Shown here piece after piece: positions 17,653 to 21,182 of a stretch of DNA of 64,000 nucleotides (the first letter of the stretch is position 1; each line of letters begins with the position of its first letter). The DNA comes from Escherichia coli (lineage in GTDB: Bacteria; Pseudomonadota; Gammaproteobacteria; Enterobacterales; Enterobacteriaceae): the NCBI RefSeq assembly GCF_044324785.1, contig NZ_CP172127.1; one strand, given 5' to 3'. Below the pieces are notes generated by a model. That model was not told the DNA's origin. It worked only from the letters and a program-made list of their open reading frames with translations, and searched no databases. A program made the translations under genes and the position numbers.

Positions 17653-18132
17653 ATGGCGAATTTAATTTATTTAACACTAAATGGTGATAATCAAGGGCTC
17701 ATTTCAAGTGGTTGTTCATCACAACCATCCATTGGAAATAAAGCTCAAACAGCACACATTGATCAAATTATGATTTATGAATTCATGCATGGATTAAATC
17801 GAGATCAAAACGTCAACCATCATCATTTGACAATAAAAAAACCTATAGATAAAGCATCACCCTTATTAGGTAAAGCAATTTGCGACAATGAATTATTGAC
17901 ATGTGATTTTTCCTTTTATCGTACAAATAAATTTGGAATTAATGAACTGTACTATAAAATCAAATTAACTGGAGCAAAGATAAGCGACATTCATGTCTCT
18001 ATATCACATATTGTTGTTGATAACAGCGTTCAACCCGAAGAGTCAGTTTCTTTCAGTTATGAGTCAATTATATGGGAGCATTGTTCCGCTGGCACTAGTG
18101 CATACAGTTTATGGGAAGATCGTCTTCTTTAA
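17653..18132 (+). CDS. hcp: Hcp (TssD) family protein, divergent and AT-rich
   Basis: 159 aa; N-terminal IYLTLNGDNQG and C-terminal SVSFSYESIIWEH fit the Hcp pattern; AAGGAG RBS 8 nt upstream; much lower GC than the upstream core. Confidence 0.8.
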   Translation: MANLIYLTLNGDNQGLISSGCSSQPSIGNKAQTAHIDQIMIYEFMHGLNRDQNVNHHHLTIKKPIDKASPLLGKAICDNELLTCDFSFYRTNKFGINELYYKIKLTGAKISDIHVSISHIVVDNSVQPEESVSFSYESIIWEHCSAGTSAYSLWEDRLL

Positions 18133-18152
18133 AAATATCTGGGATTATTATA

Positions 18153-19049
18153 ATGGCTAACAATATTTTACACTCTTCAACATCAGACAGTGAAAGCAAA
18201 AATACAAGCACTGACAGTACGTTATTTAATGAAAAATTCCCATTTCGATTAAGGCAAGATTTCGCATCAAGAATAACAGAAGATGAAAGTGATTTTTTTA
18301 AATGGAAAAAAATAAGAGAGTTGGCAATTGTGAGCAATCATAAAGAATGGAATAAATATGACTTATTAATTTCAAAATCTGTTAATGAAATCAACATTCA
18401 TTTGTCCAGCACTCCATACTTTCAGCCGTTGGATTGGTATATAATAAAAGCCATGCTCTGGACTGAAAACGATGCGGCAAATACTTCTCAGTGGAATGGT
18501 TATCCATTACAAATTGGTCGTTTTCGGAAAGATAAAGCGATGCCTGCTTTAATCTCTGGTGAAAAATCCACAGCCCTTGTTACCCCACCACAATGGAGAA
18601 ACAAAGCATTCAATGGGTTAAAAGATCCAGAAAGAAATTACTGGGCAAAAGAACAAATAACTGGCTCTCCAGAAGAGAATGTCAAAGCAGCAATTACTTA
18701 CTTAATGATGAAACTTTCTAATACAAAGGAAGAATCAACTATCGATCAATATGACTCAACTCTATATAGCGCCATTGTCCAAAAAGGCGATTTGGCTGAC
18801 AACATCAGAAAAGAGAGAAAAACGACCATACCTAACTTAACGAAAAACAACCCTGGAAAAAATCTCGATAAAATACACCCGGGAGATATTTTATATTATC
18901 AAAAAGCATCCATGAAAGTAATAATTACTGGATGGAAACCTATCACAATAAAAAATGTAGCGATGAATTATAATGGTGGTGGAGATCCCAAGTATGCAAT
19001 AAAACTTCAGTTCGTTTATACATTGCTCACAAAAAACAGAGTGTTATGA
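18153..19049 (+). CDS. Hypothetical protein; candidate T6SS effector (possible peptidoglycan glycosidase)
   Basis: 298 aa from ATG 18153 (alternative ATG 18111); no signal peptide, no Cys; AT-rich; directly downstream of hcp and coupled to a downstream signal-peptide protein. E…GxxQ…AxxYL motif spacing weakly resembles GH23-type lysozymes. Confidence 0.6.
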   Translation: MANNILHSSTSDSESKNTSTDSTLFNEKFPFRLRQDFASRITEDESDFFKWKKIRELAIVSNHKEWNKYDLLISKSVNEINIHLSSTPYFQPLDWYIIKAMLWTENDAANTSQWNGYPLQIGRFRKDKAMPALISGEKSTALVTPPQWRNKAFNGLKDPERNYWAKEQITGSPEENVKAAITYLMMKLSNTKEESTIDQYDSTLYSAIVQKGDLADNIRKERKTTIPNLTKNNPGKNLDKIHPGDILYYQKASMKVIITGWKPITIKNVAMNYNGGGDPKYAIKLQFVYTLLTKNRVL

Positions 19050-19501
19050 GAATGGGAAAAATAACAATTATTCTACTGCTTACATTCTCATGTACAAAAG
19101 GTCTGGCATTTGACATTTCCATGTCTAAAGAATGTAGTGGCGTTGATGAACTTGAATTTGTTGATTGTGTTAAAAACTCATTTATTATGAGCACTATTAC
19201 ACTTAAAAAAGCAGAAGCAAATATAAAAGAGAAAATTAAAAAATGGAATAACGATGAGGACGAAGCAATAAGAAAAGAAGCAGTTATTTCTTTAAAAAGA
19301 CTAGAATCTTCTAATCGGGAATTTATACGTTACAGATTTGCTCAATGCTCTTTTGCTCTAACCTGGGGGGCCAGAGTAGGACGCCTGGCATTCTCTCGAC
19401 TATATCCATGCTATACTGAGTTAAACAAAATAAGAGCCATGCAACTAAACAATGCTTACATTTCAGATTTTCAAAATCCAGATGAGATATCCAGCAAATG
19501 A
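19046..19501 (+). CDS. Small periplasmic protein, candidate immunity protein (DUF1311/LprI-like pattern)
   Basis: 151 aa; ATGA overlap with the upstream gene; cleavable signal peptide (ITIILLLTFSCTKGLA); four Cys and a KKW…RYRFAQC…G…YPCYTELNKIR pattern reminiscent of LprI-type lysozyme inhibitors. Confidence 0.6.
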   Translation: MRMGKITIILLLTFSCTKGLAFDISMSKECSGVDELEFVDCVKNSFIMSTITLKKAEANIKEKIKKWNNDEDEAIRKEAVISLKRLESSNREFIRYRFAQCSFALTWGARVGRLAFSRLYPCYTELNKIRAMQLNNAYISDFQNPDEISSK

Positions 19502-19854
19502 TTATTATAAAATTAAGATTAACATTACTATTTATACTGGCCACAATTACATATTCAGTACAATCAGACGAATTCGATGATCAAACCACTTACACGCAAT
19601 ACCGTTATTTTTCCACAGCCATACCAGAAGATATACGTAGATTTATGTTCTACGTAGATTTGTGCTTTGTAGATTTAGCATTCGATATCGAAACTGACTC
19701 AATGACAGCTAAAAATGATATTATTAATGAATGTACCCCATTAAAAGAAAGAAACAAAACATTAAAAGAAAAATATAAAAAAGATGAAGAGATAATAGCA
19801 ATTCTTTCCATTGCAGATGATACCATTTTAATTTATGAAGAATTAAAAAAATAA
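19498..19854 (+). CDS. Small secreted/membrane protein, possible second immunity or orphan immunity gene
   Basis: 118 aa; ATGA overlap with the previous gene; N-terminal hydrophobic signal (LRLTLLFILATITYSVQS); AT-rich; Lys/Glu-rich C-terminus. Confidence 0.5.
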   Translation: MIIIKLRLTLLFILATITYSVQSDEFDDQTTYTQYRYFSTAIPEDIRRFMFYVDLCFVDLAFDIETDSMTAKNDIINECTPLKERNKTLKEKYKKDEEIIAILSIADDTILIYEELKK

Positions 19855-19978
19855 CTCACATGCAATTCACTGGCAATATATATTATAATTTTATAAAAAA
19901 TCATATTTACATTATAGAAATACTCAGCTCCTGTTTGCTGCCCGCCCTAAACTACAGGCGGCAGCATAACAATAACGA

Positions 19979-20779
19979 TTACTGGAATCGACTCACCAAG
20001 TCTTTCACCATTGATACATATGTTTTTTGTTTCAAATTAAACAGTTGCACTTCCGTAACATGGTCATTTGATAGTTCTTTATTGCTCGTTTTTGTTATTC
20101 CAGCCGGCGGAAAAATTACTCTCGATTCATAATTCACCGGCGACCAGGTAGCCCACTCACCTGTTGCCACATCCACCAGCGTGAAACGTACCAGGTAGCG
20201 CAGGGAGATAGCGTCAGTGAGTTTTTCATTTTTATAGTCGGACCATACTGTTGATTTCAGCACAGAGTCATATTTTCCTGTCTGCAACGTATCATGGTAA
20301 ACAATAATCGCTTTCTGATGCCCTTTCGCAGCCACAAAACGCAATGCCTGCATCCAGTTCATATTTTCAGCACTGGCAACATCCTCGTTCTCATTTTTAT
20401 CTTTATTTTTGTTACAAGTCAGAGGCTTTTGCCTGTCCGGGATACCAGAGAATGTGGAAACAGTATAATATTTTCTCATCTCCTCCTGCATAATGGTCTC
20501 CGGTGCGCGACTGCCAGACTGAACAAGTATTACAGGAGAACTGAGGGGCACACGAAACTCATCTCCTTCAAGCGCAGCTTGAATATCCTCCTCGGATACA
20601 GCCAGAGTGGTTTCATTACCGAATAAATCTTTGTCTGTCAGTTGTGGGGGAGTGTTTTTATTAATATTACTTTGTGTAACTTGAGCTTTTTTCTTTTTTT
20701 CATCAATAGGAGATTCAGAGGCACATCCTGCAAGCAGCGAGAATAACACACATATGCAACAAACCTTTTTTGAATTCAT
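19979..20779 (-). CDS. yafT: Lipoprotein YafT
   Basis: 266 aa; lipobox (LLAGC); lies next to tRNA-Asp aspV as yafT does in E. coli. Confidence 0.8.
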
Positions 20780-21043
20780 AATCGGACACTCCCTCGCCTG
20801 TCATAATGATTAGAATATTTAGCACTGATAACGGACTCTAATTATATACCCCACTTAAATAATAACAAACAAAATCAACATGAAATATACATTCATTTAA
20901 TCAATATAAAATTATTCTCTAAAAATATATTTAAGTTGAATGGTTCGATATCATTATTGAATTTTAATAAATGAGACAACAAGCGAGAGTTACGCACTTA
21001 CGCCAGAGTAAAATCATTGAACAGAGAAATAGCGGGATTTAAA

Positions 21044-21105: not shown

Positions 21106-21182
21106 TGGCGGAACGGACGGGACTCGAACCCGCGACCCCCTGCGTGACAGGCAGGTATTCTAACCGACTGAACTACCGCTCC
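21106..21182 (-). tRNA. aspV: tRNA-Asp (GUC)
   Basis: Reverse complement matches the canonical E. coli tRNA-Asp over 77 nt (GGAGCGGTAGTTCAGTCGGTTAGAATACCTGCCTGTCACGCAGGGGGTCGCGGGTTCGAGTCCCGTCCGTTCCGCCA). Confidence 0.95.

Follow-up and report, generated by a model that had tools for sequence, protein, structure and literature searches.

What does a small, apparently exported protein do when its gene overlaps that of a candidate antibacterial toxin? The question is raised by a stretch of 64,000 nucleotides of Escherichia coli DNA (contig NZ_CP172127.1 of assembly GCF_044324785.1), which we refer to as the window. In its chromosomal setting at the end of the cluster for type VI secretion system 2 (T6SS-2; TssA, TssM, a VasL-domain protein and Hcp), the genes run in the order TssM-VasL-Hcp-effector-immunity, and the gene in question, at 19046-19501, lies co-directional with the effector gene. 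A preliminary description of this DNA had suggested that its product is a periplasmic DUF1311/LprI-like protein forming an effector-immunity pair with the upstream protein.

Our results support that pairing. The gene at 19046-19501 very probably encodes a periplasmic DUF1311 immunity protein, the orthologue of Etsi4, that protects against the upstream T6SS cell-wall effector Etse4. We pair the two genes because they are coupled through an ATGA overlap and because the pairing is conserved in distant bacteria; furthermore, the orthologue rescues cells from the toxin (PMC12981562). It had also been suggested that no description of this family as T6SS immunity existed, which is not the case (PMC8867033; PMC9796082, 2022; PMC12135965, 2025; PMC12981562, 2026). 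The pair is already known at both the family and the gene level. With DUF1311/LprI immunity to lysozyme-like T6SS effectors, including a similar pair, published in 2022 and the orthologue tested in 2026, the discovery value of the locus is small. Its practical value lies in the strain: with TssM intact and an intact ancestral effector, it is a better background than O157:H7 for work on secretion, enzymology and immunity.

The features that carry the argument are these:

18153..19049, plus strand: effector gene, encoding the intact 298-amino-acid form of Etse4 ("etse4ori")
19046..19108, plus strand: predicted Sec signal peptide of the immunity protein, residues 1-21 (MRMGKITIILLLTFSCTKGLA, followed by FD), from sequence reading and a hydropathy scan
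19127..19450, plus strand: DUF1311 helical domain, approximately residues 28-135, with helices at 35-68, 73-107 and 116-135, the pairs Cys30/Cys41 and Cys101/Cys122, and the invariant W67, from AlphaFold, conservation and the Pfam span

A probably secreted protein of the DUF1311/LprI family

The reading frame at 19046-19501 runs from ATG to TGA on the plus strand and encodes 151 amino acids, with the same sequence that had been quoted for it before. Its ATG overlaps the effector stop codon (TGA, 19047-19049) as ATGA, and its own stop overlaps the ATG (19498) of an open reading frame of 118 codons, again as ATGA. In the PGAP annotation of near-identical genomes the start is placed two codons later, at 19052 (149 amino acids), which leaves the mature protein unchanged. 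A chance reading frame is excluded, because 364 of 5426 complete E. coli genomes carry the gene and because dN/dS against three other alleles is approximately 0.13-0.15, a ratio that comes from small counts. All of the copies are chromosomal and at least 95% identical. This is a real gene, and it is under purifying selection.

The N-terminus of the protein fits a signal peptide of the Sec/signal peptidase I (SPase-I) type, with predicted cleavage after about residue 21. A basic MRMGK is followed by the hydrophobic core ITIILLLTFS, where Kyte-Doolittle means over nine residues reach 2.9, and then by TKGLA, after which the mature protein would begin with FD. The signal peptide proposed in the preliminary description is supported by this n-h-c pattern in both the sequence and the hydropathy scan, and hydrophobic N-termini occur in all aligned homologues. 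A lipoprotein reading of LLTFSC or TFSC was considered and rejected, as neither is a canonical lipobox.

Transitive homology, the cysteine signature and the predicted fold together establish membership in DUF1311/LprI (PF07007). On its own, the 151-residue protein matches the Pfam profile only marginally (E=0.0029, 18.4 bits), with an alignment that covers nearly the whole model (positions 15-106 of 106) and protein residues 39-134. The profile search that had been proposed as a check was answered by the homologues and not by the protein itself: in an exhaustive search of 1.84 billion representatives with phmmer, 77 relatives were returned at E<=0.001, and 47 of 49 phmmer homologues match PF07007 at E<=0.001, the best at 1.2e-13. 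A word-indexed homologue search reached E. coli copies only, while the other relatives were reached by phmmer. The layout of two cysteine pairs and a tryptophan that had been noticed at the outset (C30, C41, C101, C122 and W67) is present in the protein and conserved across the alignment of 49 homologues, in which W67, C101 and C122 do not vary, C30 and C41 being at least 90% conserved. The product name given by PGAP is "lysozyme inhibitor LprI family" or "DUF1311 domain-containing". The NCBIfam search gave a usable family for neither the immunity protein, the effector nor the 118-residue protein; the best NCBIfam match of the immunity protein was the UmoC family, at 21 bits against a cutoff of 120.

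Structural comparison leads to the same family. The sole PDB match of the immunity family profile is 3gi7, a "secreted protein of unknown function DUF1311", with which all four cysteines align. An AlphaFold model built on the homologue alignment (pLDDT 83.7) consists of three long helices, and a Foldseek search of the PDB with this model returned 3gi7 as the top and only confident match (probability 1.0, target TM 0.75-0.84, E=0.04). That structure is PP0307 of Pseudomonas putida, which shares the fold and the four aligned cysteines at 14-16% identity. In the model C30 precedes helix 35-68, C101 lies in helix 73-107 and C122 in helix 116-135, so that cysteine spacing and predicted helix positions are compatible with disulfides.

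The proteinaceous inhibitors Tsi3 (for Tse3), Tgi2 (for Tge2), Ivy, PliC/MliC and PliG have folds other than DUF1311, and none of them was among the Foldseek matches listed for the immunity model; they are analogues, not homologues, of the window protein. The helical Tai4 amidase-immunity family was likewise considered as kin and set aside, as no Tai4 structure was among the Foldseek matches listed. Mycobacterium tuberculosis LprI (Rv1541c), the founding member of PF07007, was reportedly found by Sethi et al. in 2016 to inhibit lysozyme. LprI and the window protein share a Pfam family and a secreted state, and LprI inhibits an enzyme of lysozyme fold; unlike the window protein, LprI is a lipoprotein, acts on host lysozyme and is unpaired with a toxin, and the similarity between the two is detectable through the family profile only.

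In some relatives of the immunity protein, one polypeptide carries two or three DUF1311 domains in tandem (P0010, at L020 1221-2534; P0017; and P0014, at L022 47-1021). The tandem gene in L020 has housekeeping-type neighbors (aconitase and DUF3579), not effectors.

Orthology with Etsi4 and conservation of the pair

The window immunity protein is identical at 145 of 150 amino acids to the protein of O157:H7/O55:H7, Etsi4, the five differences between the window and O157 proteins being G4R, V39I, K65Q, N69S and A104T. An EDL933 genome carries the immunity gene at 96.7% DNA identity, and the window and O157/O55 share the neighbors Hcp, effector, immunity gene, the reading frame of 118 codons, YafT and tRNA-Asp. 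In addition, positions 220-222 of etse4, for which a TTA-to-TAA change was published, correspond exactly to codon 74 of the upstream reading frame, which is TCA (Ser) in the window, Leu in O55:H7 and a TAA stop in O157:H7. Because of this protein identity, the common neighbors, the EDL933 match and the nonsense site at codon 74, the orthology of 19046-19501 with Etsi4 is secure.

The two genes have fared differently within E. coli. In O157:H7 the effector gene is split by the stop at codon 74, whereas the window carries the intact "ancestral" effector of 298 amino acids. Nine E. coli loci were sampled; every one has an intact immunity gene, and two have an interrupted effector, with the stop at codon 74 in O157:H7 (L003) and one at codon 51 in strain N3 (L001). 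Independent inactivation of the effector has occurred at least twice in this species.

Beyond E. coli, the pair follows TssM-VasL-Hcp in Salmonella and Citrobacter as it does here, with a downstream gene whose product is 45-51% identical to the window immunity protein; in the Salmonella relatives the effector is 40% and the immunity protein 45-47% identical to their window counterparts. At the syntenic locus L019, identity is 39% for the effector and 41% for the immunity protein but 73% for the flanking YafT. This is rapid joint diversification of effector and immunity protein, of the kind expected for a toxin-antitoxin-like pair.

Outside the Enterobacteriaceae, four distant loci offered enough sequence, and the pairing was found in all of them. 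These loci, from Burkholderia ambifaria, Paracidovorax citrulli, Cellvibrio and a Burkholderiaceae metagenome-assembled genome, each have an effector homologue (33-37% identical) that overlaps the gene after it, which encodes a PF07007 protein of 144-149 amino acids. A gene resembling that of the 118-residue protein is absent beside the pair in these four loci.

In the same loci (L009, L010, L012 and L006), gene calls out to about 5 kb included none with a T6SS Pfam domain; the bicistron, common in Burkholderiales and present in Cellvibrio, stands there without T6SS genes at that distance. Widespread as it is outside T6SS clusters, among Burkholderiales and other bacteria, it supplies numerous pairs for structural studies of how a DUF1311 fold might block a lysozyme fold.

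The effector, the proposed function and its alternatives

The upstream protein had been described as a candidate glycosidase toxin, a claim that stands at the level of fold but has no backing from sequence profiles. A lysozyme/lytic-transglycosylase-like catalytic fold is supported at fold level: the catalytic glutamate, E105 in the motif MLWTE, lies at the end of a helix within a lysozyme-like fold, and E105, Y183, Y273-N274 and Y281 are invariant in 30 homologues. A Foldseek search with the effector returned lytic transglycosylases at low probability only. Pfam gave no catalytic-domain match for the effector or any of the 30 homologues, LysM being the only domain found, and in an hhalign comparison of the effector family with the window's own MltD the LysM domain alone aligned; neither search yielded a sequence profile linking the effector to a catalogued glycosidase family. 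Etse4 may be a lytic transglycosylase or a hydrolase.

The LysM domain of the effector, at about residues 200-250, is degenerate, and in the window protein too degenerate for Pfam. It seems to sit within the catalytic domain as an insertion and not as an appendage, because the invariant Y273-N274-G-G and Y281 come after it; MltD, unlike the effector, has its LysM domains at the C-terminal end. The effector N-terminus is hydrophilic and without a signal peptide, and an alternative in-frame ATG at 18111 would give a protein of 312 amino acids. At least 398 clusters of this family were found, mostly proteins of 246 amino acids. PGAP splits the gene into a "pseudogene, missing C-terminus" of 219 nucleotides and a separate coding sequence for 198 amino acids, and does so despite an uninterrupted 298-amino-acid reading frame in seven of the nine sampled E. 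coli loci (L002 and L013-L018), including that of O55:H7 CB9615. The split looks like an annotation artefact inherited from the split O157:H7 gene, and PGAP makes this error systematically across E. coli genomes.

Previous work shows how such a pair behaves. Etse4 was toxic specifically in the periplasm and was rescued by co-expressed Etsi4, which is described as a DUF1311 protein; the rescue construct is described as carrying etse4 and etsi4 only (2026, PLoS Pathogens; PMC12981562). In Salmonella Dublin, the SPI-19 pair "LysM/LysMI" described in 2022 consists of SED_RS06235, with 290 amino acids, a LysM domain and an HHpred transglycosylase domain, and SED_RS06230, with 146 amino acids, a Sec/SPI signal and PF07007, inside the SPI-19 T6SS (PMC8867033). 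A mutant lacking the whole module was outcompeted by the wild type, but a mutant lacking the effector only was not, a result in favor of an effector-immunity pair (PMC8867033). The architecture and location are those of the window pair, in a divergent allele and a different genus, and the N-terminus implied by the S. Dublin primers (PMC8867033) looked, by eye, unlike the Salmonella relatives that we found. Finally, DUF1311/LprI proteins have been predicted as immunity to lysozyme-like T6SS effectors (PMC9796082, 2022; PMC12135965, 2025). Like the window protein, the orphan LprI genes of Pantoea hcp islands and the DUF1311 genes beside WHIX effectors encode signal peptides and adjoin lysozyme-like T6SS effectors; they differ in being predictions only and in having partner effectors from other lysozyme-like families (PMC9796082, PMC12135965).

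We propose that the immunity protein would be translated from the transcript of the effector, with which its start codon overlaps, and exported through Sec with removal of the signal peptide of about 21 residues. In the periplasm it would fold as a three-helix DUF1311 bundle, probably with two disulfides (C30-C41 and C101-C122). Etse4 would be a LysM-bearing, peptidoglycan-degrading toxin injected by sister cells through T6SS-2, its delivery being presumably Hcp-dependent or Hcp-assisted, and the immunity protein would neutralize it, most likely by binding it directly and blocking the catalytic cleft around E105. The predicted compartments agree with this scheme: a signal peptide on the immunity protein and none on the effector is the arrangement that immunity in the periplasm to a T6SS effector would call for.

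Several observations weigh against this proposal. The Pfam score of the protein itself is too weak to accept alone, a single-sequence PDB search with it returned spurious repeat-protein matches only, and its loop between helices 2 and 3, TWGARVGRLAFSR, deviates from the family consensus SLGGGAIGNA. Active-site occlusion of Etse4 by Etsi4, most likely as it seems, is argued by analogy with proteinaceous lysozyme inhibitors and with T6SS Tgi/Tsi proteins. The rescue was demonstrated in an over-expression system with the truncated effector of O157, and the same study detected no secretion of Hcp1 in enterohaemorrhagic E. coli (EHEC) (PMC12981562). In S. Dublin the competition effect was only 1.5-fold (PMC8867033), and the family identity of SED_RS06235/06230 is judged from described size, domains and location, not from sequence.

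Of the alternatives, the one that deserves most attention is a general periplasmic lysozyme inhibitor, comparable to LprI or to Ivy, PliC and PliG, which would act against host lysozyme and for which adjacency to the effector would be incidental or secondary. LprI, which gave the family its name, is a lysozyme inhibitor, O157:H7 and strain N3 retain the gene intact despite a broken effector, and the EHEC paper raises the possibility (PMC12981562). Yet keeping an orphan immunity gene is a standard defense against toxin-bearing kin, the gene overlaps the effector gene through start and stop codons, the pairing is kept in soil and plant bacteria without an animal host, and the immunity protein diverges in step with the effector, much faster than YafT. 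A general inhibitor alone fails to explain a conserved bicistron in environmental bacteria, and we consider it improbable. Inhibition of host lysozyme and immunity to Etse4 are not mutually exclusive, however, and the former is possible as a second role.

A different assignment within the same locus would make the secreted 118-residue protein (19498-19854) the real or an obligatory co-immunity factor, with the DUF1311 protein as an accessory. Its gene is coupled to the DUF1311 gene through ATGA, and in L019 and L007 similar genes lie beside the DUF1311 immunity homologues, twice in tandem in the latter. The coupling notwithstanding, the rescue construct with etse4 and etsi4 alone and the four loci outside the Enterobacteriaceae in which the pair occurs without such a gene make this assignment quite unlikely, and more so than the general inhibitor. 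Least plausible, to the point that we would give it hardly any credence, is a role unconnected to T6SS, for example as a UmoC-like regulator of the envelope or flagella. UmoC is the best NCBIfam match, and DUF1311 domains do occur in settings other than T6SS, including the tandem multidomain proteins beside housekeeping genes; the UmoC score is far below threshold, however, and genomic context, co-occurrence and the literature are all contrary, the immunity function having already been reported for the orthologue Etsi4. Periplasmic immunity to Etse4 accordingly stays our preferred explanation for the gene at 19046-19501.

Neighboring genes and the island

The remaining features of the locus are the following:

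17653..18132, plus strand: Hcp family type VI secretion system effector (PGAP; NCBIfam TIGR03344, E=1e-58)
19498..19854, plus strand: open reading frame for a secreted protein of 118 amino acids, ATGA-coupled to the immunity gene
19979..20779, minus strand: gene for a YafT lipoprotein, the conserved right-hand flank of the island (PGAP "lipoprotein YafT"; PF25851:YafT in the syntenic locus L019, 73% identical)
21106..21182, minus strand: tRNA-Asp (aspV), the insertion landmark of the E. coli T6SS-2 island (ARAGORN; PGAP)

The position of the Hcp gene agrees with the published map, in which Hcp1 is placed immediately upstream of etse4 (PMC12981562). The 118-residue protein had no match in Pfam, NCBIfam or the PDB. 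Its gene accompanies the immunity gene in enterobacterial loci, and in both L019 and L007 its relatives follow the immunity homologue.

Downstream, the island is followed by YafT, tRNA-Asp, dnaQ and rnhA. The block from hcp through the effector, the immunity gene and the reading frame of 118 codons to yafT (17650-21000) has a GC content of 30-37%, compared with 55-58% in the T6SS core upstream, which is in keeping with separate acquisition of this block as a variable cargo island beside tRNA-Asp. A scan of 17500-20100 for promoters and terminators found sites no more numerous than in shuffled sequence.

The VasL-domain T6SS gene at 16277-17626 carries a 1-nucleotide insertion near 17610 relative to O55:H7. 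As a result, about 25 residues at the C-terminus are replaced, and the reading frame ends 60 nucleotides early. According to PGAP, the VasL-domain gene is also "frameshifted" in N3, AST215, 2012C-4502, AF40, THO-010 and other strains.
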